DNA from: an uncultured bacterium
Lineage (GTDB): Bacteria > Fidelibacterota > Marinisomatia > SCGC-AAA003-L08 > GCA-2689995
NCBI GenBank assembly: GCA_964529325.1
Contig: CAZGWH010000001.1
Span: 2,872 to 66,871, forward strand
DNA length: 64,000 bases
Direction: 5' to 3'
The translations under genes were made by a program, and so were the position numbers. The notes below the pieces were generated by a model. The model was given only the letters and a program-made list of their open reading frames with translations. It was not told the DNA's origin and ran no database searches. Positions 11,721 to 38,640 of this stretch are shown one piece after another. Numbering within the stretch: position 1 is the first letter of the stretch; every line of letters begins with the position of its first letter.

Positions 11721-14700
11721 TTAATTTTCTAAAATAATATTTATAAGTAATAATATATCCAATACATTTACTTCGATATCAAAATTCAAATCGGCTATTT
11801 CGTTAAATTCATTATTTATAATTAAATTCACAAATAATAATACATCTAAAACATTAACTTCATTATCTAAATTTATATCTCCTTCAAAACAAGAATAAAC
11901 ATGTATAAAATTTTCCATAGTATTTGAAGTTAATTCACCGTGTAAATCAAATATAGTTAATGTGACATCATACCAACCAATTTCATTTAATATAAAAATG
12001 GGATTTTCAGCAAATTGAACTTCTTCATTTCCAACCTCCCATTGCCACCATAAATTTACCCCAGTAGATGAGTTCAAAAATTGTACCGATTCACCTTCAC
12101 AAATTAAATTGGACTCAACATTAAAAATTGGTTGAGGTTCAGGTAAAATTTCATATTTTATTTCTTCTACTTCCATTTCAACAATTACTTGAGATGTAGA
12201 TCGAATCTGGATATAATAAAAATCATTAGGGTATAATAAGGAATCCAAACCATTTATGTTTTGCCAGGCTTCCCATTGAATAATACCTAAATCATCAAAA
12301 TACACATTAGAAGTTCCATTTTCGGGTGGTGAAGACCTAATTATCATATCTACAAAATTACCATTTTCAGGTATTTCAATTTCTCTTTCAAAATTAGTCC
12401 AGTCAAAATATCCATTTAATGTACCCATTAATGATTCATTGGCTATTGAATTTCCGCAATTTCTATCTGAATAATAATAAGTATTAATTCTGGCATTATT
12501 AGCATTATCACCTTTAACAACACCATGTACGGTATGCTCAAACTGATTCATAATTGGCACACAATATGAAATTTCGGTGATTGCATTATTTTCATCAAAA
12601 TAATTTCTAATCTGCTGTAAAGCATATTCACCATTATAAGAAATTGAATCATTTATAAATTCGGAATCATGTGGAATCATTCTCCAATAATTTATTCCAG
12701 GGTCCCAACAATCCATTGGTGGGTTATATTCAAAATCCCCCATCATTATAATTTCTCTGCCTAATCTAAATTCAAATTCACCATTATTTAAAAATTCTAA
12801 ATTTTTAATACTACCAACTCGTTCTAATTCAATTGGTTTAGAAATATTATATCCAGTATTATTATTTAATAGTGAATCAGAAAGAATATAATAAACATTG
12901 GATATTTGTTCATCAGGGTTAAATAAAACTTCAGCTATTTCATTTTCATAATCTACATGAAGATATGTATCAAGCTTACGAGACTTATAAGCTAAATTAT
13001 CTAAAATTCGATGAGCCAATTTTCCAGTTGCAGGTTTTGGGATATAATTTTGAATAAATACAGGTTGTATCCAATGCTTTGAAAACCCACTTTCATTTAT
13101 TTCTGAATTTATAATAATCGTTTGCCAAGTTTCAGGATATCGTTGGTCAAATACAAAATTTCCCAAAGAATGAGCAATTAAATTACCATTATATAGCTCA
13201 ATACCTTGTAAAACATGAGGATGATGATTTATGACCATATCAGCTCCAGCATCAATTGCAAAATGTCTAAATTCAATATTTTCTCTCGTTGGTTCTGTGA
13301 AAAATGGATTATATAGTTCATCCTCTCCATAATAGAATCGAGGTTCTAAAGAATATTCAGCTCCTGAATGAGTTTCTAATATAATTATATCACTTATTGA
13401 ATCAATATTTTCTATTTGTCTACTAACATTATTTTCATTCATTTTATAAAAACCAGGTTTATTATATCCAGAATCTAAATATGGTTGTTCATTATATTCT
13501 CTACCATCAATATTACTACTACCAATAATAGCAATATTTACACCTGATTTATTGATAAATACTGGTGACATTGCTTCATATTCATTTAATCCTGCACCAA
13601 AATATTTTATCTCAACAGAATCCAATTGATTTTGTGTTTCCAACATCCCATCGACCATATAATCTAAAAAATGATTATTCGCCAATGATACTACATCTAT
13701 ACCTGCATAATCCAAAGCAGAGATAGTTTCTGCCTTTGAATAAAATACAATAGATTTCGTTGGATGTGGATTCTCAGGAAAATCAGTTATAGGTGTTTCT
13801 AAGTTTGCAATAGAAATATCTGCAATATCACCAAAATATGGATTTATATATTCAAATAAATATTCAGAGCCACAAGTTGGTATTATACCATCATTACAAT
13901 TTTCATCATTTGTTGGTGCAGATATACAATTATATCTTCTACCCATCATAACATCACCAACAAAATTCATCTTAATTGGAAATGTAGATTCTCCTATATC
14001 TAAATGTACTGGGATTAAAGCGTATCCTAATAATCCTGTAGGATCTTTTACAATTAATGTCACACTATACAGATGGTCATCTTCTGTTAAATATGTATGT
14101 TGAGGATTTGAAATGGTGTCAGTTGAACCATCACCAAAACTCCAATAATAAATTATGCTATCTAAATCAGAATCAACGTCAACTACTTCTGAGTAAAATT
14201 GATAAGTTTGCGTCAATCTTCCAAATTCATCCACTTCTGAAATTACTTCTTCATCTATTGAAATCGCAACGAGAGGTGCAATAGGCAAATCTTCAGAAAT
14301 ATCAATTATATTATCAAAATAAATACTATCAGAAAACCATCCATCAGCATCATTTACATAAAACAACTTATTAATAATAGGTTCATAATTAAATCGATCA
14401 AACCAATCAATTCCAATCGGCAATACAACCTCTGCCCAATTATTTAATGTAAAATACCCTTGATAATAATTTTCAAAAAATTCTATATCTACCGATTGTG
14501 TCCCCCATATTGAATAATAAATTCTATTTCCAACAGTATCTTCAAATCCAATTGCTTGAATTTCTGAATTTAGATTATTTCCAATTAAAGATGAATACAT
14601 ATCCAAACTCCAAACAGATTGAGTGCTTACTTGAATTGAATCTAAAAGTTGGTCTTTCCATGTATTACCAAATAATACTAGCGAATATTGGGATAATGAA

Positions 14701-14951
14701 TCGGGAGTAAATTCTGAAATAACCCATTCATTAACATCAACATCATCTTCTCCATGAGAAATTAAATCTATAAACCCATTTTCAAAATCTTCTATAATTT
14801 CAGACCGAAGAATTGAGGAATTATTTATAAACTGAAATAAAACAGCTCTATTTATATTGTTCATTTCCTTTAGTTGTGTTTCAACATTTAGATTTACTGC
14901 AAATAAACTAGTAAATAAAACTACAAATAAGTAATTTAATTTGTTAATCAT
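11721..14951 (-). CDS. Secreted CapA-family metallophosphoesterase with PKD, CBM-like and C-terminal dockerin-like domains
   Basis: Signal peptide; FVGDVMMGR, ANLETP, SLANNH, HHPHVLQG, HSLGNFVFDQ motifs; PKD-like WSFGDG; tail GDINLDNEVNVLD...ADLNFDIEVNVLD. Confidence 0.85.
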   Translation of the reverse strand: MINKLNYLFVVLFTSLFAVNLNVETQLKEMNNINRAVLFQFINNSSILRSEIIEDFENGFIDLISHGEDDVDVNEWVISEFTPDSLSQYSLVLFGNTWKDQLLDSIQVSTQSVWSLDMYSSLIGNNLNSEIQAIGFEDTVGNRIYYSIWGTQSVDIEFFENYYQGYFTLNNWAEVVLPIGIDWFDRFNYEPIINKLFYVNDADGWFSDSIYFDNIIDISEDLPIAPLVAISIDEEVISEVDEFGRLTQTYQFYSEVVDVDSDLDSIIYYWSFGDGSTDTISNPQHTYLTEDDHLYSVTLIVKDPTGLLGYALIPVHLDIGESTFPIKMNFVGDVMMGRRYNCISAPTNDENCNDGIIPTCGSEYLFEYINPYFGDIADISIANLETPITDFPENPHPTKSIVFYSKAETISALDYAGIDVVSLANNHFLDYMVDGMLETQNQLDSVEIKYFGAGLNEYEAMSPVFINKSGVNIAIIGSSNIDGREYNEQPYLDSGYNKPGFYKMNENNVSRQIENIDSISDIIILETHSGAEYSLEPRFYYGEDELYNPFFTEPTRENIEFRHFAIDAGADMVINHHPHVLQGIELYNGNLIAHSLGNFVFDQRYPETWQTIIINSEINESGFSKHWIQPVFIQNYIPKPATGKLAHRILDNLAYKSRKLDTYLHVDYENEIAEVLFNPDEQISNVYYILSDSLLNNNTGYNISKPIELERVGSIKNLEFLNNGEFEFRLGREIIMMGDFEYNPPMDCWDPGINYWRMIPHDSEFINDSISYNGEYALQQIRNYFDENNAITEISYCVPIMNQFEHTVHGVVKGDNANNARINTYYYSDRNCGNSIANESLMGTLNGYFDWTNFEREIEIPENGNFVDMIIRSSPPENGTSNVYFDDLGIIQWEAWQNINGLDSLLYPNDFYYIQIRSTSQVIVEMEVEEIKYEILPEPQPIFNVESNLICEGESVQFLNSSTGVNLWWQWEVGNEEVQFAENPIFILNEIGWYDVTLTIFDLHGELTSNTMENFIHVYSCFEGDINLDNEVNVLDVLLFVNLIINNEFNEIADLNFDIEVNVLDILLLINIILEN

Positions 14952-15104: not shown

Positions 15105-17138
15105 ATGAAAGCATTATATTTAATCTTTTCAATTACTATTGCCTTTTCAAATCAGGTGAAAAATCAAAATCCCCATCTAAAACATTTTAATATTATAAGT
15201 GGTCAATTAAAAAAAATCACCAATAACCCAGAATATTTAATAAGGGAATACCTCTCTAATAATAAATTTCAATCAGGATATACAAATGAAATTGATTTTA
15301 AATTAAAAACAATTAATGAAGATAAAAATAATACTACACATTTAATTTTTCAACAATACTATTTAAATATCCCCGTTTTTGGAAAAACTATAAGAGCTCA
15401 TATAAATAAAAATAATCAATTATCATCAATTTCATCAAATATCGAGCAATTTAATATTCATATTCAACCAACTATACCAATTAAAGAGGCAATGAATAAA
15501 ATAAAACTTATCAAAAAAATTAACCGAAAATCATACATAAAATATAATCAATTGTATATTTATTTAAAAGAGAACAAACCATATTTAATTTATTCATTTG
15601 AATATGTTAATTTTGAAAATCCATATAAATATTTTATTGATGCACATTCAGGTGAAATTATTTTGGAGTTCCCACTTTCATTTCAAGATGGACCAACAAC
15701 AGGAAGTGGTATAAATTTAATGAATCAAAATATTGAAGAATTACAAGTTTATGAAGGAAATTCATATAATCCAATTGGAAATCAATCGACCCCATATTTG
15801 ATTTGTGAAGAATATTGTTGGGATTATGGTGATTGTGATGGTGAAAATTATAATGATTGTGTAATTGCACCACAACAAGGGGATTGTTCTAATGGTTTTT
15901 TGACCGATTGTAATGGTGAATGTTTTAGTGAATGGTATATGCAATTTCCTGGCGTAGGGAATGGGTTTTGTAATGACCCCTGGATTGCATTTAATGACTC
16001 TACAATTGCGACGGGTAGCTACAATTTGGTAGATGAAAGCAACTCTGAATTAGGTACAATTTATACTTTAAATAGTTATGGAGGATTTTATGAAAATATT
16101 TCATTGGTAAACAGTGAAACCTCAATTTTTAACAATAATGATAATAGCCTTTCACACCATTCAGGTGTAAGCGCTCATGATTATCAACGAAAAACTCTCG
16201 ATTATTTTTGGAACTACCATAATTATGCAGGAATAGATGGAAATGGTAAGCGAACAATTTCAGTTGTTAATTATTTTTCAAACTCAAGTATTAGTCAAAA
16301 CAACGCATTTTATAATGCATCACTAGATATTTTAACTTATGGATATGGTTCTGCAAGTTATCGACCATTTTGTGCGGGACTTGATGTTGTGACTCATGAA
16401 TTTAGTCACGGCTATACAGCACATACATCGGGTTTAATTTATAGAAATCAAGCCGGGGCATTAAATGAATCAATGTCTGATGTATTTGGTTATTTAGTTG
16501 AAGCTGTTTATCAAGATGGTGGTGACTGGTTACAAGCAGAAGATGTTCATGTTAATGGTGCAGGAAGAAGTTTTAATAACCCTCCTCAATTTGGGCAACC
16601 AGACCACAGAGATCATAATTATTTTGTACAATACAATCCTAACCCTCAATGGAACAATGATTTTGGAGGTGTACATACAAATTCAGGGATAACAAACAAA
16701 TTACTCTATTTAACAATTCAAGGTGATATACATTATAATATTGCCGTACCACCATTTGAAGAAGATATAGTCCAATCTCGAATTATTGCAGGAAATATAT
16801 GGTTCGCTTGGAATACATACTATCTAGACATAGAAGATGATTTTCAAATATCAAGAGATAAAATGCTTCAAGTTGTACAAGATATTTATCCTGGAAGATT
16901 AGATTATTTACAAACAGTTATAAATGGATGGGCATCACTTGGATGGGGAACTGAAATTGTATCTGGAGACTTTAATGAAGATTTAATTGTGAATATTCAA
17001 GATGTAATTATATTGATAAATATTATTTTAGGTAACTTCATACCAACTGAACATCAACAGTTGTTTGGTGATTTAAATCAAGATGGATTATTAAATATTC
17101 AAGATATACTTGAAATTGTTGTTATCATTATGGATTGA
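15105..17138 (+). CDS. M4 (thermolysin-like) metallopeptidase with propeptide, Cys-rich insert and C-terminal dockerin-like domain
   Basis: Signal peptide; FTP/PepSY-like propeptide; NNAF, HEFSH (HExxH), ALNESMSD, GVHTNSG; tail GDFNEDLIVNIQD...GDLNQDGLLNIQD. Confidence 0.92.
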   Translation: MKALYLIFSITIAFSNQVKNQNPHLKHFNIISGQLKKITNNPEYLIREYLSNNKFQSGYTNEIDFKLKTINEDKNNTTHLIFQQYYLNIPVFGKTIRAHINKNNQLSSISSNIEQFNIHIQPTIPIKEAMNKIKLIKKINRKSYIKYNQLYIYLKENKPYLIYSFEYVNFENPYKYFIDAHSGEIILEFPLSFQDGPTTGSGINLMNQNIEELQVYEGNSYNPIGNQSTPYLICEEYCWDYGDCDGENYNDCVIAPQQGDCSNGFLTDCNGECFSEWYMQFPGVGNGFCNDPWIAFNDSTIATGSYNLVDESNSELGTIYTLNSYGGFYENISLVNSETSIFNNNDNSLSHHSGVSAHDYQRKTLDYFWNYHNYAGIDGNGKRTISVVNYFSNSSISQNNAFYNASLDILTYGYGSASYRPFCAGLDVVTHEFSHGYTAHTSGLIYRNQAGALNESMSDVFGYLVEAVYQDGGDWLQAEDVHVNGAGRSFNNPPQFGQPDHRDHNYFVQYNPNPQWNNDFGGVHTNSGITNKLLYLTIQGDIHYNIAVPPFEEDIVQSRIIAGNIWFAWNTYYLDIEDDFQISRDKMLQVVQDIYPGRLDYLQTVINGWASLGWGTEIVSGDFNEDLIVNIQDVIILINIILGNFIPTEHQQLFGDLNQDGLLNIQDILEIVVIIMD

Positions 17139-18688: not shown

Positions 18689-20011
18689 ATGGAAACATTA
18701 TGTAGAGAACTTTCAAAAAATACGTTTCAATTACTCAAAAAAAATGAGCATTTATCAATTTCATTTAGTGGAGAAAATAGTAATTTTATCCGTGTAAATG
18801 AATCGAAAGTCAGGCAAATTTCAACTGTCATTAATGGTGAAATTGAAATTGAATTAATTATTGGTCAGAAAAAAACAGTTCATGGATTTACATTAACATC
18901 AAATAATATAACCAATTTAATTAAAGTAGAATCAGAATTATATAAAATGAGAGCATATATAAATGAATTACCAAATGATCCATTTATTGTGTTGCCAAAA
19001 GAAGGTGAATCAAGTAAAAAAATAATAAAAGGTAACCTCATAAACGACGATGAAATTTTAGACTCAATTCTCCCTCCGCTTTCAAAAGTCGATTCCTCAG
19101 GAATTTGGGCATCAGGAATAATTTTTAAAGGATTTGCAAGTTGCAAAGGGGTTTTTCATTGGTTTGAAACTGAAAATTATTCTTTTGATTTTTCACTTAT
19201 TACCAAAGATGAAAAAATGGTAAAAGAGACTTATACAGGAAATTATTGGAATCAAAAAGATTATAATCTATTTATTGAAAATGCAATTCTAAAATTTAAT
19301 TCAATGGAAAAGAAAAATATAAAGCTAAAACCTGGAAAATATAAAACCTACATTGCTCCTGCTGGAATTTCAGATTTAATAAATATGTTTAGCTGGGGGG
19401 GTATTAGTGAAAGTGCAATTAGGCAAGGAGGGAGCGCATTTTGTAAAATGAGAAATGAAAACATATCCCTAAACCCTCAATTTAATTTAATAGAAGATTT
19501 TAATTTAGGATTGAATGCACGGTTCAATAATTATGGTGAACTATCTCCAGATAAGTTAAATATAATTTCTTCAGGAAAACTAATAAATACACTTATTTCA
19601 TCTCGTACAGCAATAGAATATAATTTAGAAAGCAATAAAGCTGAAATAAATGAAGGACTTAGAACTCCCGTAATTGCTCCTGGGAATTTGAATGAAAATG
19701 ATATTCTAAAAGAAATTGGAACGGGGATTTATTTATCTAACCTCCATTATTTAAATTGGAGTGATCAACCCAATGGTAGAATAACAGGAATGACTCGATA
19801 CGCATCATTTTGGGTTGAAAATGGAGAAATAATATCTCCAATTGAACAAATGAGGTTTGATGATAGTTTTTATAATTTCTTTGGAAACAACTTATCACAT
19901 ATTTCAAAAAAAACGCAAATAATCCCAGATGTTTCAACTTATAATGCTCGTTCATTAGGGGGAGTAAAATGTCCTGGGATGATTATTGATAATTTTAAGC
20001 TTACGCTATAA
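18689..20011 (+). CDS. TldE/PmbA-family partner subunit
   Basis: TldD paralog without HExxxH, YLNWSD...TGMTR motif; ATG at 18689 follows a GGAGG SD and the tldD stop (track start at 18629 is too long). Confidence 0.85.
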   Translation: METLCRELSKNTFQLLKKNEHLSISFSGENSNFIRVNESKVRQISTVINGEIEIELIIGQKKTVHGFTLTSNNITNLIKVESELYKMRAYINELPNDPFIVLPKEGESSKKIIKGNLINDDEILDSILPPLSKVDSSGIWASGIIFKGFASCKGVFHWFETENYSFDFSLITKDEKMVKETYTGNYWNQKDYNLFIENAILKFNSMEKKNIKLKPGKYKTYIAPAGISDLINMFSWGGISESAIRQGGSAFCKMRNENISLNPQFNLIEDFNLGLNARFNNYGELSPDKLNIISSGKLINTLISSRTAIEYNLESNKAEINEGLRTPVIAPGNLNENDILKEIGTGIYLSNLHYLNWSDQPNGRITGMTRYASFWVENGEIISPIEQMRFDDSFYNFFGNNLSHISKKTQIIPDVSTYNARSLGGVKCPGMIIDNFKLTL

Positions 20012-21945
20012 TGTTTATGGATCCCTCTCAACGAATTAATAAATTGATATTATTTCTTTTTATTATACTATCATCCCTTCCCGCTGGGGTTATATCAAAA
20101 CATTATTTAGGTGCTCGATTAAATATAGATAATAATGAAGCAACATTTATTGATAAAATTGAATGTGAAGCAAATCCACATTGGACATTTAATCTTTCAT
20201 CTGAATTAACAATTTCAGCAATTTTAATAAATGATAAAATACGGAAATTCACTAAATTAATTTCAGGACCTTCACAAACTCAGTATAAAATACATCGAAA
20301 TTTTTGGGAACCAAAAGATGCCTTAATCTATATTGAATATTATTCAAATCAATCGGATATTTTTCATGAGATAATACCAAATCAACTCGTACAATTAAAA
20401 GCGAGCGAATATTTTTATCCAACAGGAAATGAATTTACATCTCAATTTGAATTTCATTTGCAAATACCATCTGATTGGAAATTAATTAGTGACGGTAATG
20501 TTATGAAGATAAAAAATAAACAAAATAGCTATAAAATTTTATCACCAAAAAAGATTACTCAATTAAATTTATTCTTTTTAAAAGATTATCAGGAAACACC
20601 ACAATTAAATAAGTTATTACTTACACTATTTTCCAATAATTTAGCTAATCAAGTAAAAGAAGAAATTATAAATAATTTTTTTACAGCACTTCAGATAGCT
20701 GAAGATTTATTAGGCCCATTCCCATTCCCTAAATTTGATATTGTGCTCAGTGAGTATGAATTTGAATCAAATTCAATTATTTTTATAAATCCATTGGAAT
20801 TAAAGGCTGAACTAAATAATTTACCCGTAAAAATATTAAATCAATATTATAGATATTATTTATTTCCGACAGAATTATCTAACCTAAATTGGATTGAAGC
20901 AATTCAAATTTATTTATTAGATTATCTGCCAACATTATATAAAAATCCAATTTCTGCACAATTATTTAGAAAAGAAATACTAAATTCAAATTCTAAATCA
21001 ATAACTTCAAATATCTTTAATGATACTTTGCAAACCGAAATAGATAAATATGAAATTCAAAACTATTTATTTCTTTTATTCACATTAGAAAAACAAATAG
21101 GGAAAGAAAATTTAATAAATAAACTACAATTATCTATTGAAAAATTTGCTTTCAATAAAGTAGATAAAACAAAATATTTCACTTTTCTATTTGATGAATT
21201 ATTTAATGATATGGATTTTTATTTAACTGAGAGATCATCTTTTCAATTCGAAATTCCAACTATTGAAATTGTAGAATCAGAACAAATAATCTCATTATTA
21301 CAACCAAACAAAGTATTGCCCATGTTATTACCAATCACCTATTATTTTAATAATAAATCTAAATTAGATAGCACTTTATATACAAAATCATTTAAAACCA
21401 CTCTTGCAAATAAAATAGATTCAAGTTTAATTAAAATAGAAATTGATCCATCGTATCAAATATTTCGTTCATTGAATGAAACAGAAATTGATACAAAAAT
21501 TAAAGATATCTTTAATTATCCAATTTTGCAAGTCTCAGTCTCAAATCAAATTTCAAATCAAACCCATATCCATAAATTAATTTTGGATGTTTTTCAAAAT
21601 CAAAATATTATATTCACTAAATTTGATGAATTGAACTCAAATTTACCTTCTATTATTATTGGAGACTTGCCAAATGAATTTAAATATTTATCAACAGAAA
21701 CAGACATAATATTAAATGGTCGTAAATTTTATTTAAAAAATCACTGTCTTGCATACGCAATCCATTCACAGAAGAATCTTACAAACTTAATAATTTATTC
21801 AGATTCTGAAAAGCAAATTATTCCTGTATTAAATAAATTAAAATTCTTTAAAAATTATGGTTATTTTATTTTAAGAAATGGAAATAATGCTGATAAGGGG
21901 ATACATAAAACACATAAAAAACAATTAATTTGGAAAAATAAATGA
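20011..21945 (+). CDS. M1 aminopeptidase-like protein with degenerate active site
   Basis: LGPFPFPKFDIV and WIEAIQIYLLDY resemble M1 motifs, but the HExxH position reads KILNQYY; TAATG overlap with tldE. Confidence 0.6.
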   Translation: MFMDPSQRINKLILFLFIILSSLPAGVISKHYLGARLNIDNNEATFIDKIECEANPHWTFNLSSELTISAILINDKIRKFTKLISGPSQTQYKIHRNFWEPKDALIYIEYYSNQSDIFHEIIPNQLVQLKASEYFYPTGNEFTSQFEFHLQIPSDWKLISDGNVMKIKNKQNSYKILSPKKITQLNLFFLKDYQETPQLNKLLLTLFSNNLANQVKEEIINNFFTALQIAEDLLGPFPFPKFDIVLSEYEFESNSIIFINPLELKAELNNLPVKILNQYYRYYLFPTELSNLNWIEAIQIYLLDYLPTLYKNPISAQLFRKEILNSNSKSITSNIFNDTLQTEIDKYEIQNYLFLLFTLEKQIGKENLINKLQLSIEKFAFNKVDKTKYFTFLFDELFNDMDFYLTERSSFQFEIPTIEIVESEQIISLLQPNKVLPMLLPITYYFNNKSKLDSTLYTKSFKTTLANKIDSSLIKIEIDPSYQIFRSLNETEIDTKIKDIFNYPILQVSVSNQISNQTHIHKLILDVFQNQNIIFTKFDELNSNLPSIIIGDLPNEFKYLSTETDIILNGRKFYLKNHCLAYAIHSQKNLTNLIIYSDSEKQIIPVLNKLKFFKNYGYFILRNGNNADKGIHKTHKKQLIWKNK

Positions 21946-24543: not shown

Positions 24544-24798
24544 AACTTACATTCATTTATACTTAAAAAATTTAAACATATTATCTACCATTAATAATAT
24601 TCAATAAGATAAAATTATAATAAAATGTTTCTTCAAAAAAACAAATTGTTAAGAAAATAACGAATTAATAATAATGTTTTAAATACTTAATTAATTCAAT
24701 TTTTTTGATTCATTTCTTTTTAAATTATTTATCTTGGTAAGTTGCCTCTTTTGATAGGTACACGAATACTTTGTTTAACAAATTGGATAATTAATATA

Positions 24799-27700
24799 AT
24801 GAAAATTATTAAATATATTATAATATTAATCGGAATTACAAAATTCCTAATTGCTCAGGACACGCCTGTAAATTTAGAAACAGAAACAATTGATCATAGT
24901 AGTATTCAATTAAATTGGAATATTTGGGATCCTGCAGACTCATATTTTAGTAATATTATCTTTATTTCAAATATTGAAGATAATGGGAATGGGACAATCG
25001 TGATGGAATTTTATCTTGAAAATGATGCAACTATTTCATCATTTAATTTATCTTTAGAATCAGATATTTATATTTCGGATGTTGAATTAACAAGTAATTC
25101 CTTAGATAATATTGGGTTTATTATAACACATGAGGAAGAAAATCTGGGTGACTTTACAATTAGTGGTAATAATACAGGGCAGAATATTCCTACAGATTTT
25201 GGAATACTTCTTCAATTAACAGGTAATTATGACCCTGACCATGGCGATGAATCTCAATTTTTCATCAATTATTCTGAGTCAAATTTTATAGATAATAATA
25301 TTGAACACCTATCATATAAATGGAAGAATATAGTTTGGGAAGTTGGCACTGGAATAGCTCCAGATATATGTGGAGATGGAGTGTGTACCATTAATGAAAA
25401 TTATAGTATTTGCCCTCAAGAATGTGAGTTAGATATTACATATTCAATTTATTTTGAAAATAATCCTCAATTAATTGCACAAACTTCATCAAATAATTCA
25501 ATTATTCAAAATCTTATTCCAATTACGCCATATTGTTTTGAAGTAGTTGCAACAGAAAATAATTCTAATGTAAATGAAATTTCAAATATTGCTTGTTCTA
25601 CTACTAATTGTGTTGAACAAAATTGGTGTCAAGATTTAGATGGCGATGGATATGGTAATCCTGCAATATTAATTTCTTCTTGCCAGCCAATATCTAACTT
25701 TGTCGCAGAATGTACTGATGAGGATGATAGTTCATATTGTTTATCAAATTCTTTTGATTTTTGTGGAGTGTGTAATGGACCAAATGAATGTAATTATGTT
25801 GAAGATCCAGATTACCCTGGAATTTGTCAATGTGGTAATGGTGAAGATTCATGTTGGACAGAAGGATCGACATCTTCAGGCTATATAATTGATTGTAGTG
25901 GTACTTGTAGTGGTGTGGCAGAAAAAGATGACTGTGGTGTGTGTACTGGAGGAAATACATTAAACTCATTTAATGGTTCTCAGGATTGTTATGATACTTG
26001 TTCCCCTACTGACCCTGAATCACTTTCTAGCTGTGATAATGGTTTAGGATTTAATGAACAGGGACAAGAATGTTTAAGCTACTTAGGTGCAGGAAGTGGT
26101 GTTGACCAATGTGGAATTTGTGGTGGAAATAATTCAGCATGTTTCCCTTATTTTGAAGGGCCTACAAATTTATTAGCTCAGGCAACAAATTTACAAATTG
26201 GACTTAGCTGGGACCCTGTTAATTTATGTGACCCCTATATTTATGATTGCGATTGGGGGGATGAAAATCAATCGTTGAGTGAAAACCCTATTAATTCAAA
26301 TTATTCAAGAAATGAAACAACATTAAATTCAAAACTTTCAATAGATCAAATTGTAGATGATGGACAAGGAACTGTTAGTTTTTATATTAATTTACAAGCT
26401 GATTCTGATGTATATAGTGCTCGATTTAATTTGGATATTTTAGATATATATGATACTCTTAGCGTTTTTCAAGATTTCCCAAATATAAATGATTTAGCGA
26501 CAAATACAACTGATTGTAGCGGAAACACCTGTGTTCAATTTGGGCAACCAGCTGGCGGAATTTTAGATAATGAAGATTTTGATTTTTCAGGATATACCCA
26601 AATGGATGGTAGTGCAAATTTGCAATCTTTTTCAGGTGACTTTATCAACCAAGAAATTCTTCAAGCAGGAACTACATTATTTAGAATGGATGCAACTTAT
26701 GATCCGATTGCATTAGCGGGAAAAGAACTTTTCGTAACTCATACATTGACTATACAAACAGAAAGTGATACCTTGGTTGTTTTTACTGAAAATTATGAAA
26801 ATTTAACTACACGATTTAATACTTCAGTTTGGCAAGTTGGTTTTGGTCTTTCTTCAATCTTTTCGTGTGGGGATGGAATTTGTCAAGAACCATTTGAAGA
26901 ACCAGGCGATGATTTAATGTCTGGAATTGATGGTTACCCAACTGCTTGTGGAACAGGTTTAACTGAATATTTTCTTGGAGTCGGAGTTATTGGAGATTGC
27001 ATCCCTCCTCAATTTTGTGGAGATGAGATATGTCAAGATGAAAGTTATTGTGAATTTGTTGATAATATTTTAGAATGTGGTTATACAGACGGTGCACCTC
27101 ATGAATATGATAATGAAAGTTGGCAAAATTGTAATTTAGATTGTTACTCGTGTGGAAATGGAATTTGTGATTGGGATAATTATGAAAATTACTGTGACGA
27201 AATTCCAAATAATGATATACCTGACTGTACAAATATTCCAATTAATTATTTATCTTGTATTGATGGTGAATTTTATTCAGAAATAAATGATGGGGTTTGG
27301 GGTGATTGCATGGAGCCATTTGAAGTAGTATATACCATCTATAAGGATAATGTAATTTATTCTTCTGAAGAATCATGTATTGCAAATTCAGGATATTGGC
27401 TTGGAGAATGTTTTACACCATTAATTTCTACTACAAATACACAATTCAATGATGTTGGTCTCGATTATTTAGAAGACCATTGTTATTTCATTGAAGCGAA
27501 ACAAGGTGAATTAACAACAACGATAGCTCAAAATTCGAATATATCTTGTGATCAGACAAATCCTCAAATTGGTGAATTGCCAGTAATTAGAAGAATTGAT
27601 GATATGCCTGGAGATCAAGGTGGATATGTGAAATTAACAGTTCAACGATCATATTCTGATAATGGTACTGTTGATTCACTATATCAAGTATATCGAAAAT

Positions 27701-28722
27701 TCCAAGAAAGTAACTGGACTCATGTAGGTTCATTCCCTGGAACAGGTGAACAAAGTTACTTTTTCATTTCACCAACTTTAGAAGATTCTGTGCCGAGCAA
27801 CCCAAACTATCATAATTTTAAAGTTTATTACAGAGGATATATCGACTCATCCGCATTTAGTAATTTCCCTGAATATGGTTATTCAATTGATAATATTGCT
27901 CCCTCTACTCCCACAGGGCTTTCATTAGAACTTGGAAATGATAATATTTTATTAAACTGGAATCCTGTATTTGAAAACGACTTTAGCCATTACTCAATTT
28001 ACCGAAATAACTATAATGTAAATAATCCATCTACGCATTCATATATTGATAATAATTATACTGAAAATGGTGGATTTAACTTCGGGGAACTACTACAATA
28101 CCAAATTGGAGCATTTGATATTCATGGAAATGAGTCAATATTATCTGATATTGAAATGACTTCTTATGGATTACTTGGAAATGTAACTTATCAAGATATA
28201 TTTTTATATGGAGAAAATAATCTTAATGACCCTTTAAGTGATTCAACGCTAATAGATATATTAGATATTTCAATGGCTCAATCAATTGCATGCAGTCAAT
28301 TTGATGTATGTGATCAAAATATTAATAACAACTCGATGTCAAACCCATCTGACTATGAAATATGGGCAAGTGATATGAATTTTGATGACATTGTAAATGT
28401 TTCCGATTTAAGCTGTTTAGTTTATTATATTCAAAATGGTTTAGTTTGTCCGACTGAGAATGCTGTTTCAATTAATATTTCTCCGAATTATGAATCAAAA
28501 ATAATCCAATTTAATGCAGATTCAATACATCGATTTGAAATTTTGGTCGATGAAAATATTCATATTCTAAATCATAATCTTCCTGAAAGCTGGATAATTA
28601 TACAAAATAAAAATTCAATAAATGCATATTCACCATTCAATATTCCATTCAATGGTAAATTAGAAATTGAATTTGGCAAAATTATAAAAATTAATTCTAT
28701 TTCTACTTATTCTTATAAATAA
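24799..28722 (+). CDS. Large secreted Cys-rich multidomain protein (two cohesin-like repeats, FN3-like segments, dockerin-like module near the C-terminus)
   Basis: Signal peptide from ATG 24799 (MKIIKYIIILIG...LIAQ); CGDG.C and DDCGVCTGG/DQCGICGG repeats; DNIAPSTPTGL; SDMNFDDIVNVSD. Confidence 0.8.
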   Translation: MKIIKYIIILIGITKFLIAQDTPVNLETETIDHSSIQLNWNIWDPADSYFSNIIFISNIEDNGNGTIVMEFYLENDATISSFNLSLESDIYISDVELTSNSLDNIGFIITHEEENLGDFTISGNNTGQNIPTDFGILLQLTGNYDPDHGDESQFFINYSESNFIDNNIEHLSYKWKNIVWEVGTGIAPDICGDGVCTINENYSICPQECELDITYSIYFENNPQLIAQTSSNNSIIQNLIPITPYCFEVVATENNSNVNEISNIACSTTNCVEQNWCQDLDGDGYGNPAILISSCQPISNFVAECTDEDDSSYCLSNSFDFCGVCNGPNECNYVEDPDYPGICQCGNGEDSCWTEGSTSSGYIIDCSGTCSGVAEKDDCGVCTGGNTLNSFNGSQDCYDTCSPTDPESLSSCDNGLGFNEQGQECLSYLGAGSGVDQCGICGGNNSACFPYFEGPTNLLAQATNLQIGLSWDPVNLCDPYIYDCDWGDENQSLSENPINSNYSRNETTLNSKLSIDQIVDDGQGTVSFYINLQADSDVYSARFNLDILDIYDTLSVFQDFPNINDLATNTTDCSGNTCVQFGQPAGGILDNEDFDFSGYTQMDGSANLQSFSGDFINQEILQAGTTLFRMDATYDPIALAGKELFVTHTLTIQTESDTLVVFTENYENLTTRFNTSVWQVGFGLSSIFSCGDGICQEPFEEPGDDLMSGIDGYPTACGTGLTEYFLGVGVIGDCIPPQFCGDEICQDESYCEFVDNILECGYTDGAPHEYDNESWQNCNLDCYSCGNGICDWDNYENYCDEIPNNDIPDCTNIPINYLSCIDGEFYSEINDGVWGDCMEPFEVVYTIYKDNVIYSSEESCIANSGYWLGECFTPLISTTNTQFNDVGLDYLEDHCYFIEAKQGELTTTIAQNSNISCDQTNPQIGELPVIRRIDDMPGDQGGYVKLTVQRSYSDNGTVDSLYQVYRKFQESNWTHVGSFPGTGEQSYFFISPTLEDSVPSNPNYHNFKVYYRGYIDSSAFSNFPEYGYSIDNIAPSTPTGLSLELGNDNILLNWNPVFENDFSHYSIYRNNYNVNNPSTHSYIDNNYTENGGFNFGELLQYQIGAFDIHGNESILSDIEMTSYGLLGNVTYQDIFLYGENNLNDPLSDSTLIDILDISMAQSIACSQFDVCDQNINNNSMSNPSDYEIWASDMNFDDIVNVSDLSCLVYYIQNGLVCPTENAVSINISPNYESKIIQFNADSIHRFEILVDENIHILNHNLPESWIIIQNKNSINAYSPFNIPFNGKLEIEFGKIIKINSISTYSYK

Positions 28723-30312: not shown

Positions 30313-31383
30313 ATGAATGACTATCATGTAATATTAGCAGGCGGGTTTGGTTCACGATTTTGGCCCAGAAGTCGAAAGGATAATCCCAAACAATTATTAA
30401 AAATATTTGGTAATGAGTCAATGATTCGCCTTACGGTTAATCGATTAAAAAAGCTCACGACACCTTTGAATATTCTAATTGTAGCCTCTGAAAATTTATG
30501 CAATAAAATGAAAATTGAATTACCAGAGATTCCAAATAATAATTTTATTATTGAACCGAGTGGTAGAAATACAGCTCCAGCCATTGGTTTAGCAGCCATC
30601 CATGTTTATCAAAGAAATAAAAATGCAGTCATGTGTATTTACCCTGCTGATCATTTAATTGTAGAAAATGATAAATTTTGTGAAATTGTTACAGAAGGAA
30701 TCCATTTTGCTCAAGAACATTCTGCTTTAATCACTATGGGAATAAAACCAACTTATCCTGCAACGGGATATGGTTATATTCAATTTGGTAATTCTCACAC
30801 AGATAATTCAAATATTTATAAAGTAAAAACTTTTGCAGAAAAGCCACCATTAAAGAGTGCAGAACGATTTTTAGAAACGGGTGAGTTTTTATGGAATTCA
30901 GGTATGTTTATTTGGAAAGCAGAAATAATACTATTAGAAATGAAAACATATATGCCTGAGCTTCATGAATCTCTTGATGTAATATTTGACTCATTTGAAT
31001 CTGGAAAATATGACATAATATTAGACCGAGAATGGGAAATTATACAACCTGAAAGTATTGATTATGGAATTATGGAAAAAGCAAAAAATGTATTTACGCT
31101 AAAAGCTGATTTTAGTTGGAATGATATGGGCACATGGAAATCGGTGTATGATGTATTATCAAAAGATAAAAATGGGATGATACTTCAGGGTAATGTTCTT
31201 TCTGTTGAATCAAAAAATTCAATTATTTATAGTCAGGATAGGTTAACAGCCGTTATTGGAATTGATAATATTGCTGTGGTCAATACGGATGATGCAACAT
31301 TAATTATGCCAATGGATCATGCCGAAAAAGTGAAAGAAATTGTAAATCAATTAACTGCTTCAGAAATGAATGAATTTTTATGA
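30313..31383 (+). CDS. manC: Mannose-1-phosphate guanylyltransferase
   Basis: ILAGGFGSRFWPRSR..PKQ, EPSGRNTAPAI, FAEKP, WNSGMF, WNDMGTW. Confidence 0.94.
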   Translation: MNDYHVILAGGFGSRFWPRSRKDNPKQLLKIFGNESMIRLTVNRLKKLTTPLNILIVASENLCNKMKIELPEIPNNNFIIEPSGRNTAPAIGLAAIHVYQRNKNAVMCIYPADHLIVENDKFCEIVTEGIHFAQEHSALITMGIKPTYPATGYGYIQFGNSHTDNSNIYKVKTFAEKPPLKSAERFLETGEFLWNSGMFIWKAEIILLEMKTYMPELHESLDVIFDSFESGKYDIILDREWEIIQPESIDYGIMEKAKNVFTLKADFSWNDMGTWKSVYDVLSKDKNGMILQGNVLSVESKNSIIYSQDRLTAVIGIDNIAVVNTDDATLIMPMDHAEKVKEIVNQLTASEMNEFL

Positions 31384-31647: not shown

Positions 31648-32961
31648 TTACCCAAATAATTTTAAAATATAAGCCATCGAATTCATTCGTTGTTTTAATA
31701 TTTGAGTAGAAGATTGCATTAAAATTTCAGCCTTCATTTGATTCATCGATTCCTTTGCAAAATCTATATCCTCAATTCGACTTCTTGATTTTTCTGTATT
31801 TAATATATGTGTTGATAAATTCATTTCTTTATTATCTAACCGATTTATTGTTCTTCCAATATTCTGTGAGAGCTTCAACAATATAGATAAGTTGTCTTCA
31901 ATTTGAGTTAAAAAATCTGGTTTAGCAGTGTTTAATATTTGATTTTTCACCTCTGAAATCACACTAGAAAAGTCATCATTAATATTTATTGTAAATCCAT
32001 CAGAGCCATTTGTAATTGATTCAAAATCATTATAAAATCCTGGTTCCGTAACTGTTATTAATTTACCATTTATACTATTTATTGCTGTTAATGCTTCACT
32101 TTGTCCTGAATCACCTTGATCCGGATTCTCATCTCCAACAACCATTAAATATCGATTTGAACCAACTCTAAATTCCATATTATTAGCAGTATCTTCAATT
32201 GCATCATAAGTGGGTTCAATAGATCCATCTAGCGTATTTTGATTCCAAATATTATTTATAAAATCATCAGTATCTGTCGTTAATTCTCCAACAATTGGAT
32301 TACCCCCGTTTAATGATGCACCAAACCGTGTTAATCCCAAAGCTAAATCAATATTTTCAGATTCAAGTTCATTTACTAAATTTTGTAAGTTATTTTCTAT
32401 TCCAGCTTGTTCCTCACCCAAACTTCCACTATTATCCATAATAATTGCTAAATCAACTTTAATATCTTCACTGAATGTTAAATTTAAACTTGATATATCA
32501 AAATTAATTTCTAGCTTATCTGTTGAATCACTACCCACTTGAAATTCAAAAGAATCTGTATTTAATATGTCAAAACCATTAAAATTTGAAGAGTTTAAAA
32601 TATCCAAAATTTCACTACCTACGGCATTCATTCTATCCAATAATGCATTTTTTTGACTAGAATTATAAGATCCATCATTATATGATATTGCTTCTTTTTT
32701 TAATTCAATTAACCTATTTATTGCAGATTGTACAGATCCATCGGCAATAGATAGCATATTAGAAGCGGTAGATATATTTCTCATTGCAATTTCAGAATTT
32801 CGAACTCTTTCTTCAAGTGATTTTGCAATATGGTAATCTGCGGGTGATTCTTCAAGTAAATTCTTTTTTCCAGATGATAATTTAGAAAATGAATTACTTA
32901 CACTATTCGATGCTTTCTTTAATCCATTTAGATTATTATATATTCCAATTGTCTCTAACAT
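31648..32961 (-). CDS. Flagellin with a von Willebrand factor A domain in the hypervariable region
   Basis: N-term KLSSG, ADGSVQ, NFNG, FQVG; C-term RSRIEDIDFAKE...ILMQ; central DLAIIMDNSGS (MIDAS DxSxS) and LMVVGDE; start moved to ATG 32961. Confidence 0.85.
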   Translation of the reverse strand: MLETIGIYNNLNGLKKASNSVSNSFSKLSSGKKNLLEESPADYHIAKSLEERVRNSEIAMRNISTASNMLSIADGSVQSAINRLIELKKEAISYNDGSYNSSQKNALLDRMNAVGSEILDILNSSNFNGFDILNTDSFEFQVGSDSTDKLEINFDISSLNLTFSEDIKVDLAIIMDNSGSLGEEQAGIENNLQNLVNELESENIDLALGLTRFGASLNGGNPIVGELTTDTDDFINNIWNQNTLDGSIEPTYDAIEDTANNMEFRVGSNRYLMVVGDENPDQGDSGQSEALTAINSINGKLITVTEPGFYNDFESITNGSDGFTININDDFSSVISEVKNQILNTAKPDFLTQIEDNLSILLKLSQNIGRTINRLDNKEMNLSTHILNTEKSRSRIEDIDFAKESMNQMKAEILMQSSTQILKQRMNSMAYILKLFG

Positions 32962-32969
32962 AGTAAATA

Positions 32970-32995
32970 TTATCGACAAAATAATATAATCTTTA
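32970..32995 (-). promoter_or_regulatory. Sigma28 (FliA/SigD)-like promoter
   Basis: Minus strand TAAA-N14-GTCGATAA versus consensus TAAA-N15-GCCGATAA; -10 ends 8 nt before the flagellin ATG. Confidence 0.6.
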
Positions 32996-33066
32996 ATTAT
33001 ATTTAATAAAATTATATAAAAAACCATAAAATTAATTATTTTATATTAATAAATATTTCACTTTTA

Positions 33067-37038: not shown

Positions 37039-38640
37039 TTATTCTAAAATAATATTTACAATTGAAATTATATCAGAAATATTTACTTCATTATCCAAAT
37101 TTAAATCACTTAATGCTATTTGAGCATCGGATAATATAGAATTGCCCAACACATATTCAACAATTATAATTATATCTAAAATATTTAATATTGCATCATT
37201 ATTTACATTTCCCATAATAACAGAAATACATGTATTCATTGAAAATGGTGGGATGGAAATTTGATTTAATCCTGCTTCATAGGATCTATTTATAGAATCA
37301 TACCCATCAATTTCTTTCCTTAAAGTATCAGCTGTCCAATGAGTCCATAATAAGTCATTATTAAATGCATTTTCCACTGAAATAATAAGAGTCGTATCAG
37401 AGACATTTGTAATAATTCCAGATTCGTCAAAATCATTATTAAATTTCCAACCAAATAACCGAGGACAATTAATAAACTTTTCAATTCCGCCATTTGTTAC
37501 AAACATAATTGTATCAGAGAAGGATTCAGGAAATTGTAATTGTATATTTTCAGTCATATCCTTTGCCATCCAATCATATAACATCGCTGAAAATGCAGTT
37601 GCCCTTTTTTGAAAATGTTCATCTTCGCTATTATTAATAGCATCAAACCCTGTTGGCCCACCTACATTATGTGCAAGTAACATAGTAACCAAATTATTTC
37701 TCATTATATTGTCAGTCATTGATGATAAAAATAAGGAATGTAACCAAGTATTTCGATAAATATGTTCTTCTGATTTATCAAATAAATTATATTCTGTTAC
37801 CCAGATTTCATGATTTTGAATTAGTGCAGTTGTATCCTGAAATCCTCTCCATTCTTCTATTCGAGGGATATCAAAATATGGATAGCTAATAAATTGTCTA
37901 TCTGTATATCCCGCATGAGAATCTTTCATATATAAATATACATGCCAAGTTAAAGCATCAAATGAATCCGATTGAATATTTGCATATAAACTATCATTCC
38001 AATGAGTAGCTCTTTCAGAGTCCCCTCTATTCCCTCCAGTTATTGTTATTTTGGCTTCTGGTAATATAGTTTGTAGTGAATCAATATATATTTGGCAATC
38101 GCGAGCATAATCACCAGCTGTAGGGTATTTCGCAATATAAAATTCATTAGGATGATTTATTTCACTACCTAATTCTAAATTTCTAAATTGCATACCATTT
38201 TGCATCGCATTAGTAACAGATTCCATTGAGGTTCTAACATCCGTAGTAATCATATTCATAATAAAAATACCTTCTGCCCCAGTAACATTTAACGCATTTT
38301 GAAAATGAATAGGACGAATATCGATTTGAGGTAGGTTTATCCAATTATTTGGTAAAGTATCAACAGGAAGAGTATCATTAATTATTGGCTCATCTAAAAA
38401 CCAACCCGTTGCCCAATCCCAATATGAGGCACCTGAAGGGTATCGGAGGATATCAGGTTTCATTGTTGCCACAGAATCAGTAAACTCTCCATTAATCCAA
38501 GATGGCCCACGCACAGTATTTCCATTAAAACCATATTTTGGAACAGAACGAGTTTCCCCCAATGAAACTTCAATATCTTGAGAAATACTTATTGAAACCA
38601 GAAAAACTAAATTAACTAAAAGAAACCTCATAATTACCAT
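37039..38640 (-). CDS. Secreted clan GH-A-like glycoside hydrolase (GH79/GH51-like) with C-terminal dockerin-like domain
   Basis: Signal peptide; LRYPSG..YWDW, LELGSE, WHVY, IWVTEYN; tail GNVNNDAILNILD...SDLNLDNEVNISD. Confidence 0.72.
   Translation of the reverse strand: MVIMRFLLVNLVFLVSISISQDIEVSLGETRSVPKYGFNGNTVRGPSWINGEFTDSVATMKPDILRYPSGASYWDWATGWFLDEPIINDTLPVDTLPNNWINLPQIDIRPIHFQNALNVTGAEGIFIMNMITTDVRTSMESVTNAMQNGMQFRNLELGSEINHPNEFYIAKYPTAGDYARDCQIYIDSLQTILPEAKITITGGNRGDSERATHWNDSLYANIQSDSFDALTWHVYLYMKDSHAGYTDRQFISYPYFDIPRIEEWRGFQDTTALIQNHEIWVTEYNLFDKSEEHIYRNTWLHSLFLSSMTDNIMRNNLVTMLLAHNVGGPTGFDAINNSEDEHFQKRATAFSAMLYDWMAKDMTENIQLQFPESFSDTIMFVTNGGIEKFINCPRLFGWKFNNDFDESGIITNVSDTTLIISVENAFNNDLLWTHWTADTLRKEIDGYDSINRSYEAGLNQISIPPFSMNTCISVIMGNVNNDAILNILDIIIIVEYVLGNSILSDAQIALSDLNLDNEVNISDIISIVNIILE

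Follow-up and report, generated by a model that had tools for sequence, protein, structure and literature searches.

The window analysed here, a 64,000-nucleotide stretch of contig CAZGWH010000001.1 (assembly GCA_964529325.1), carries on its minus strand a gene for a flagellin-like protein whose two ends enclose a central domain of the von Willebrand factor A (vWA) type with a predicted metal-ion-dependent adhesion site (MIDAS). Genome-collection matches identified the carriers of this flagellin-vWA gene as metagenome-assembled genomes (MAGs) of Candidatus Neomarinimicrobiota, NIOZ-UU64 at 96% identity and MED589 at 65%. The window has a GC content of ~28% and includes core chromosomal genes such as those for IF-2, NusA, TruB, AlaRS, Lgt and GcvP. 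As the first-pass annotation had stated, the gene is flanked by ManC and TetR. The gene-caller version of the protein (P0001) is 459 residues long, starting at the ATG at 33027, and bears a hydrophobic N-terminal extension resembling a signal peptide. This longer start was rejected, as other clades have in-frame stops 0-3 codons before the shared methionine and the extension overlaps the conserved promoter described below. These two observations show that the coordinates of the 437-residue form, which the first-pass annotation had given, are correct. The orthologues, 425-445 residues in length, likewise align from Met1 of the shorter form, which on the evidence of these alignments is the real product.

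Both ends of the protein were recognised by the flagellin families of Pfam over almost the whole length of the profiles. Flagellin_N (PF00669) matched residues 9-134 (profile positions 9-135 of 139) with 48.1 bits against a gathering cut-off of 26.6, while Flagellin_C (PF00700) matched residues 353-434 of 437 (profile positions 3-84 of 86) with 42 bits against a cut-off of 23, so that the N- and C-terminal polymerisation regions proposed earlier clear the thresholds on both sides. The full-length AlphaFold2 model (pLDDT 76) has long helices at residues 3-28, 40-95 and 101-124 of the N-terminal part and at residues 349-426 of the C-terminal part. Among the NCBIfam models, those for flagellin reached E 2.5e-26 as against E 1.9e-13 for FlgL (TIGR02550), and the sequence search of the Protein Data Bank (PDB) placed solved flagellins at the top, down to E 9e-17, as against 2.8e-4 for FlgL, with many flagellar filament structures among the matches. 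As flagellin models and structures score far better in both searches, identity as FlgL was rejected. None of the NCBIfam models reached its own cut-off, which marks the protein as a divergent flagellin that is no equivalog of any named one.

Between the terminal helices, the full-length model shows an alternating beta-alpha domain at residues 167-345. When this domain was modelled alone with AlphaFold2, it gave a pLDDT of 86 and a pTM of 0.86, and a Foldseek search of the model against the PDB returned 350 matches at E<=1e-3. Among the matches listed, nearly all of the top ones are integrin beta I-domains, with query-normalised TM scores of 0.70-0.75, and the vWA domain of TFIIH p44 reached a TM score of 0.71. 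Integrin beta-6 was also the sole PDB match of the domain sequence profile. The Pfam scan of the full-length protein reported no vWA family. As judged from the confident model and its match to integrin beta I-domains, the central domain has the vWA (Rossmann-like alpha/beta) fold, and a vWA domain of about 180 residues does lie between the flagellin ends, as the first-pass annotation had claimed. No peptidase family was matched by Pfam in either the full protein or its centre, including any HExxH-type M9 or gluzincin domain.

The residues that would form the metal site are strongly conserved. We refer to the orthologous proteins as the family, and to the wider set of related vWA domains, with 145 other members, as the subfamily. 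The DNSGS motif at residues 176-180 and the downstream VVGDE, both noted earlier, were confirmed in the translation and are conserved in the family. The aspartate, asparagine and two serines of the first motif are invariant in the family, and its aspartate and serines are found in 142 of the 145 other subfamily members. E249 is present in all 145 and P250 in 135 of these, both being invariant in the family. Use of a glutamate and not a threonine as the fourth MIDAS residue, set within an E-x-x-[FY]-D-A-[IL] motif, is a feature of integrin beta I-like domains that is present here. D277 is conserved in 11 of the 12 family members (asparagine in P0012) and in all 145 subfamily members, whereas E278 is invariant in the family and found in 143 of 145. 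The five MIDAS residues of the integrin-beta type (D176, S178, S180, E249 and D277) are thus all present. The acidic pair E183-E184 may serve as an adjacent metal site (ADMIDAS), as suggested by its alignment with the integrin Asp-Asp position; E184 is invariant in the family and is glutamate in 115 of 145 subfamily members, and position 183 is variable in the subfamily. The residues of the synergistic metal-binding site (SyMBS) of integrins had no clear or convincing mapping onto the flagellin vWA. Coordinates of the gene, its regions and its promoter are collected in Table 1.

Table 1. Features of the flagellin-vWA gene and its upstream region, in window coordinates.
Feature	Coordinates	Strand	Remarks
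Flagellin-vWA gene	31648..32961	minus	437 aa + stop; stop codon 31648-31650, ATG 32959-32961
N-terminal flagellin D0/D1 region, aa 1-157, including the beta-hairpin preceding the insert	32491..32961	minus	PF00669 and model helices
vWA domain, integrin-beta I-like type, aa 167-345	31927..32463	minus	sits where flagellins have their surface-exposed variable region
Putative MIDAS motif D176-N-S178-G-S180	32422..32436	minus	translation checked; aligns to integrin beta-6 DLSAS
E183-E184 acidic pair, at the integrin ADMIDAS Asp-Asp position	32410..32415	minus	aligned to DD of integrin beta-6 SMDDD
E249-P250	32212..32217	minus	Glu corresponds to the MIDAS/SyMBS glutamate of integrin beta; EPTYDAI versus integrin beta-6 PEGGFDAI
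D277-E278, after strand beta4	32128..32133	minus	D277 is the fifth putative MIDAS residue; translation checked
C-terminal flagellin D1/D0 region, aa 353-437	31651..31905	minus	PF00700 and model helix
Sigma-28 (FliA)-type promoter TAAAGATT-N10-GTCGATAA	32970..32995	minus	ends 8 nt ahead of the ATG

Across several samples, 12 contigs code for this protein in identical form, and 11 further orthologue clusters of Candidatus Neomarinimicrobiota, at 49-87% identity, share the same full architecture. A metagenome scan added only five loci. In the comparison with orthologous locus L007, which is unsaturated, the ratio of nonsynonymous to synonymous substitution rates (dN/dS) was 0.175 for the N-terminus, 0.095 for the vWA domain and 0.050 for the C-terminus, and other pairs gave similar values. 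These ratios point to purifying selection on all three regions, the insert as well as both flagellin ends.

An exhaustive profile search with the vWA domain, covering 1.84 billion cluster representatives, returned 1586 relatives at E<=1e-3 and 123 at E<=1e-30. A word-index search with the excised 189-residue domain had given zero matches, not even the parent protein, which the exhaustive search showed to be a limitation of the tool. The Marinimicrobia flagellins were represented in the exhaustive search by one full-length sequence (344 bits) and two fragments, and the next relatives were proteins of 800-3900 residues that carry the domain around residues 270-460. In those sampled, an InhA-like MAM domain stands ahead of the vWA, and of the three long ones that were scanned, P0045 and P0051 end in Por_Secre_tail, the sorting domain of the type IX secretion system (T9SS), and P0048 showed no such domain. 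The C-terminus of a 1410-residue protein at L010 is similar to Por_Secre_tail by eye. These large proteins belong to the same subfamily as the flagellin insert, to which they are up to 44% identical, and share its signature DNSGS[ML]x[DE]EQ ... R[YF]G ... N-x3-G-x2-EP ... DE, the metal-site residues being present in 142-145 of 145 members. They differ from the flagellin in their size, in the MAM domain that usually precedes the vWA, in the cysteine that two thirds of them have within the domain and, where a sorting tail is present, in their export by T9SS as against the flagellar route proposed here. From these relationships, the insert is likely to be a captured copy of a vWA module of large surface proteins of the FCB group.

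A vWA domain of the same subfamily was found at the same position in a further flagellin, P0154, a protein of 475 residues from a contig of 67% GC with Flagellin_N at 91 bits and Flagellin_C at 58 bits. In its termini it shares 49-53% identity with ordinary flagellins of ~277 residues labelled Rhodothermales, Bacteroidota and Balneolaceae, and its vWA domain is up to 46% identical to that of the large proteins as against 34% to the Marinimicrobia copies (rank 106 of 155). As both the termini and the vWA domain of P0154 are nearer to sequences elsewhere, a single ancestral fusion for P0154 and the Marinimicrobia family is not supported. Tentatively, as the neighbour-joining distance tree is poorly resolved, a Rhodothermales-like flagellin would have acquired the same vWA subfamily in a second and independent event. 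If true, two FCB lineages would have inserted the same type of domain separately.

The promoter ahead of the gene resembles those recognised by the flagellar sigma factor FliA (sigma-28). The version at L008 and L006, TAAAGTTT-N10-GCCGATAA, fits both halves of the classical FliA consensus, which is TAAA-N15-GCCGATAA, and the family-wide form is TAAA-N14-15-[GT][CT]CGATAA, ending 8-9 nt before the ATG. The element stands at this fixed distance in the window and at L007, L008 and L006, L012, L014, L015 and L020, that is, at every orthologous locus examined. It has been kept across at least three gene neighbourhoods and down to a protein identity of 49%, amid diverged intergenic DNA. The motif TAAA-N13-16-GYCGATAA has a single match in the 64-kb window against 0.10 expected, and it occurs upstream of an ordinary 280-residue flagellin at L016, which served as a positive control. 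The pattern reads as a phylogenetic footprint of FliA-dependent late flagellar transcription, with recognition by FliA suggested by the consensus, and points to a real late flagellar gene. As the -10 element lies 8-9 nt before the ATG in all orthologues (32962-32995 on the minus strand in the window), the mRNA is probably leaderless or nearly so, which would leave no 5' untranslated region for translational control of the flagellin of the CsrA/FliW type. A scan for sigma-70-type promoters around the gene gave no excess over chance, and the upstream region of P0154 (67% GC) has no recognisable sigma-28 motif.

A second conserved block, TTGCTGATTTTAT (AATTAATTTTAT in the window, 33026-33037, minus strand), lies ~60 nt upstream of the ATG and ~25 nt upstream of the -35 element and is shared by L008, L012, L014 and L015; its role could be to bind a regulator or to act as an UP-like element. 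Another site resembling a sigma-28 promoter, TAAAG-N13-TATCCGATAATA, was found ~5.8 kb from the flagellin gene at L008 (16073-16099, minus strand) and L012 (11864-11890, minus strand), where it precedes two small conserved open reading frames (ORFs) without a Pfam family, one of ~117 residues with hydrophobic segments at its N- and C-terminus and one of 106-120 residues. These two may share a regulon with the flagellin, their conservation being weak evidence as L008 and L012 are 85% identical there; no homologue of either was found in the window. An additional sigma-28-like match at L007 (6487-6514) and L018 was taken as chance, since it is not retained in the window.

With regard to export, neither a signal peptide (maximum 12-residue hydropathy 0.17) nor a lipobox nor a T9SS tail is present in the protein. 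Cysteine is lacking in all 12 flagellin-embedded proteins, whereas one or more cysteines occur in 66% of the vWA relatives outside flagellins; at position 211, 83 of 145 such relatives have cysteine and the flagellin copies threonine. The absence of cysteine would fit passage through the flagellar channel, a statistically weak association (about 0.12 for two lineages).

We consider it moderately probable that the gene encodes a late-class flagellar filament protein of SAR406 in which the variable domains have been replaced by an integrin-beta-like vWA, so as to form an adhesive filament that displays MIDAS sites. This reading, the leading one of the first-pass annotation, is strengthened by the sigma-28-type promoter, the purifying selection, the lack of signal peptide and cysteine, and the intact metal-site residues. 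RNA polymerase carrying FliA would transcribe the gene from the promoter abutting the start codon, and the cysteine-free protein would be exported unfolded through the flagellar type III channel and polymerise through its D0/D1 helices. The vWA domain would then fold on the outside of the filament with its MIDAS outward. In vWA domains both chain ends lie together on the face opposite the metal site, so that the MIDAS should point away from the filament. Given the abundance of Mg2+ and Ca2+ in seawater, a metal ion would occupy the site, and a carboxylate or similar acidic group of the ligand would complete the coordination. Many weak sites along a filament could together hold the cell firmly to particles, acidic polysaccharides or other cells.

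Several observations weigh against an adhesive flagellar filament. Apart from the flagellin-vWA gene, the window has 48 non-nested ORFs of 85 residues or more; 47 were scanned with Pfam (the 48th, ManC at 30313-31383, was annotated separately) without yielding any further flagellar, motor or chemotaxis family, so that the gene is indeed the sole flagellar gene in the window, as noted at first; nor was any such gene present in ~14 kb beyond it (~78 kb in total). The scanned neighbourhoods of five orthologous loci likewise held no flagellar gene beside the orthologue. The low GC content (~28%) points to a streamlined organism, in which the retention of ~40 flagellar genes is less to be expected. 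The flagellin termini seem unusually isolated, as a word-indexed, non-exhaustive search found no close ordinary flagellin paralogue and the next match after the family reached only 64 bits, and the first ~25 N-terminal residues are variable within the family. Moreover, the promoter is no proof of a flagellum, given that a few bacteria without flagella also have sigma-28-family factors, among them Chlamydia and, with WhiG, Streptomyces. The excised centre scored 21.3 bits with PF00092, below the cut-off of 23.8, along with a weak Integrin_beta match, yet it was assigned to vWA because the structure model matches integrin beta I-domains. Relatives in the subfamily score 22-46 bits with PF00092, and four orthologue clusters carry a precomputed match. 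This slight shortfall and the empty word-index search with the excised domain are what could be said for an artefact, be it an assembly chimera, a pseudogene or a chance likeness of the centre to vWA. Such an explanation has practically no probability left and is already refuted. The presence of the identical gene on 12 contigs from several samples and the shared architecture of 11 orthologue clusters exclude a chimera, a possibility raised in the first-pass annotation, and the intact reading frame and dN/dS of ~0.1 exclude a pseudogene or decaying relic. A chance likeness is contradicted by the confident structural match and the 1586 relatives, which also account for the empty word-index result as a limitation of the tool.

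Among the biological alternatives, the solitary position of the gene in ~78 kb and in every orthologous context, the termini without close ordinary-flagellin relatives and the low-GC, probably streamlined genome would suit a flagellin repurposed in a cell without a motile flagellum, where most of the apparatus would be gone and a sigma-28 factor kept, as a surface or released adhesin or as a non-motile fibre that leaves the cell through a reduced type III core or by another route. A flagellin homologue of Sphingomonas sp. A1 that is said to bind alginate at the cell surface and the sigma-28 factor of the flagellum-less Chlamydia could serve as parallels. We consider this unlikely, as D0/D1 are under strong purifying selection, especially in the C-terminal helix (dN/dS 0.05), and these regions are known only for type III export, the binding of chaperones and polymerisation. 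An alternative export route also finds no signal peptide, lipobox or T9SS tail to rely on. In the literature searched on flagella in SAR406/Marinimicrobia, one relevant statement was found, reporting flagellar genes in most Marinimicrobia MAGs of one study (PMC8163782), which may belong to other clades. These reported genes and the conserved sigma-28 promoter make the repurposed, flagellum-less alternative, the fallback of the first-pass annotation, less likely. The evidence for a flagellar filament, namely the flagellin ends, the promoter and the selection, also underlies a reading in which the vWA domains mainly contact each other in a structural outer layer, a metal-stabilised sheath that would alter filament stiffness, waveform or resistance to proteases and grazers in seawater; in one variant an acidic residue of one subunit could be bound at the metal site of its neighbour. 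Conservation in the protein is highest in the vWA core and its loops, as expected for fixed subunit contacts, and outer domains of other flagellins are known from cryo-electron microscopy to pair into sheaths that alter motility. Against such a layer, which we also hold to be improbable, the same MIDAS signature is found in ~145 very large proteins, several of them T9SS-tailed, where filament contacts cannot explain it, and the integrin-type MIDAS is classically a site for external ligands. Least likely of the biological alternatives, in our view, is a low-copy component of the hook-filament junction, the proximal segment or the tip, which would display few vWA domains. The match of Flagellin_N and Flagellin_C to FlgL as well (TIGR02550, E 1.9e-13) could be taken in its favour, and many bacteria place different flagellins along one filament. 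The domain-bearing flagellin of Clostridium haemolyticum, in addition, co-assembles with a plain structural flagellin (PMC5595980). The flagellin models and structures far outscore FlgL, however, and no plain flagellin paralogue from the lineage was found in a non-exhaustive search. In a bolder scenario, which we regard as unlikely, these low-GC and probably streamlined SAR406 bacteria would have abandoned swimming yet retained the sigma-28 regulon and this flagellin, and a flagellum-derived export core would build a non-rotating, integrin-like 'Velcro' fibre tethering the cell to marine particles or other cells. If true, the flagellum would have been converted into a dedicated adhesion organelle, and with the Rhodothermales-like capture this would mark a recurrent evolutionary route in the FCB group.

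The gene occurs in at least three distinct contexts. In the window and in the contig of P0002, it lies between ManC and TetR-YceI-Lgt; at L006, L008 and L012 it lies between HIT or EF-G and a GATase_4 protein with a T9SS tail; and at L015 and L020 it has other, likewise non-flagellar, neighbours. In the clade of 62-65% identity, the 3' end of the flagellin gene overlaps by 12 nt the convergent gene of an 885-residue GATase_4 protein (L006 11303-13963, L012 6328-8985), which ends in Por_Secre_tail; this protein beside the gene indicates that these genomes use T9SS for large surface proteins. Dockerin type I domains were observed at the ends of large secreted proteins in the window (11721-14951, minus strand; 15105-17138, plus strand), at L012 (9000-11018) and at L020 (313-3975), in the combinations PGA_cap with PKD and dockerin, M4 thermolysin-like protease with dockerin, and sulfatase with dockerin; in a 1220-residue protein of this set the C-terminus is dockerin-like by eye only. 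To our knowledge, this surface-display tag is not usually linked with Marinimicrobia. Three window ORFs had no Pfam match at E<=1e-5, at 24742-28722 (plus strand, 1326 residues), 20011-21945 (plus strand, 644 residues) and 37039-38640 (minus strand, 533 residues), the first of them directly upstream of a Big_5 lipoprotein-like gene and ManC.

The domain layout itself is not new. Eckhard et al. 2017 (Nat Commun 8:521, PMC5595980) surveyed 26,587 flagellins, and their Supplementary Table 1 lists the architecture Flagellin_N~vWFA~Flagellin_C with 21 sequences from NCBI nr of January 2017 as the ninth most common, its lowest common taxon being 'Bacteria'. That entry agrees with the protein described here in having flagellin ends and a vWA-superfamily domain in the variable region in the same order. 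Unlike the present analysis, it is one table line without sequences, taxa, vWA subfamily, metal-site analysis or function. No functional or structural study of vWA-flagellins was found in the literature searched beyond this table. What is new here is the Marinimicrobia family, the predicted integrin-beta-type metal site, the likely source of the insert in large vWA proteins, the start-abutting promoter and a probable second, independent capture. The nearest experimental precedent for the proposed mechanism is flagellinolysin (FlaMP; FliA(H) of Clostridium haemolyticum), which likewise has a functional domain in the flagellin variable region, one that folds, assembles into filaments and is active on their surface (PMC5595980). 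The flagellinolysin insert is an enzyme, a peptidase M9-type zinc metalloprotease (HExxH), whereas the vWA/MIDAS insert of the present protein is a binding module and lacks a catalytic motif; flagellinolysin also comes from a different phylum, and the flagellin-vWA is known here from sequence and models.

In structure, the closest likeness is to the integrin beta I-like domain, which was the best structural match and shares the D/S/S/E/D residues of the MIDAS; an acidic pair of the flagellin vWA aligns with its ADMIDAS position. The integrin beta I-domain is an inserted domain too and has its two termini on the side away from the metal site. Unlike it, the flagellin vWA comprises ~180 residues instead of ~240, has no alpha-subunit partner and is only 12-17% identical in sequence, and, to judge only by its length, it seems to lack the integrin specificity-determining loop. 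Other vWA adhesins stand on appendages, such as PilY1 on type IV pili, RrgA and GBS104 at pilus tips, and CglB and CglD in Myxococcus gliding, and like these the flagellin would present a vWA/MIDAS on a surface appendage for attachment. Weak NCBIfam matches of the protein were to 'MIDAS family adhesin' (E 5.9e-5) and CglD (E 0.028). Of those adhesins there are one or a few copies, located at a tip or at sites of focal adhesion, whereas here one copy per filament subunit would follow, and the scaffold and the secretion route differ. The PDB sequence matches also included 3k8v and 3k8w (E 2.4e-11), which we take to be the flagellin homologue p5 of Sphingomonas sp. A1, reportedly a cell-surface alginate-binding protein. 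It resembles the protein described here in being of the flagellin family with a binding role, but it is alphaproteobacterial and has no vWA insert, the binding being attributed to the flagellin itself.

With the source of its inserted domain identifiable, the family offers an example of domain transfer between two secretion systems, in which a cargo of T9SS would have become a cargo of the flagellar type III system, a passage that the absent cysteine fits with weak statistics. The filament would be a natural counterpart to engineered flagellar display, with a binding module as a second functional class of flagellin alongside the flagellinolysin protease. Genes of this kind are annotated as 'hypothetical protein' or plain 'flagellin', the Marinimicrobia member MAJ44328.1 appearing at NCBI as 'hypothetical protein [Candidatus Marinimicrobia bacterium]', because of which current metagenomic surveys of motility and attachment miss the trait. 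In the ocean interior, SAR406/Marinimicrobia rank among the uncultured bacteria of greatest abundance, and the way in which they encounter sinking particles and stay on them has a bearing on carbon export. If the adhesive filament proposed here is true, an integrin-type site on every subunit would be a simple combination of motility and high-avidity attachment.

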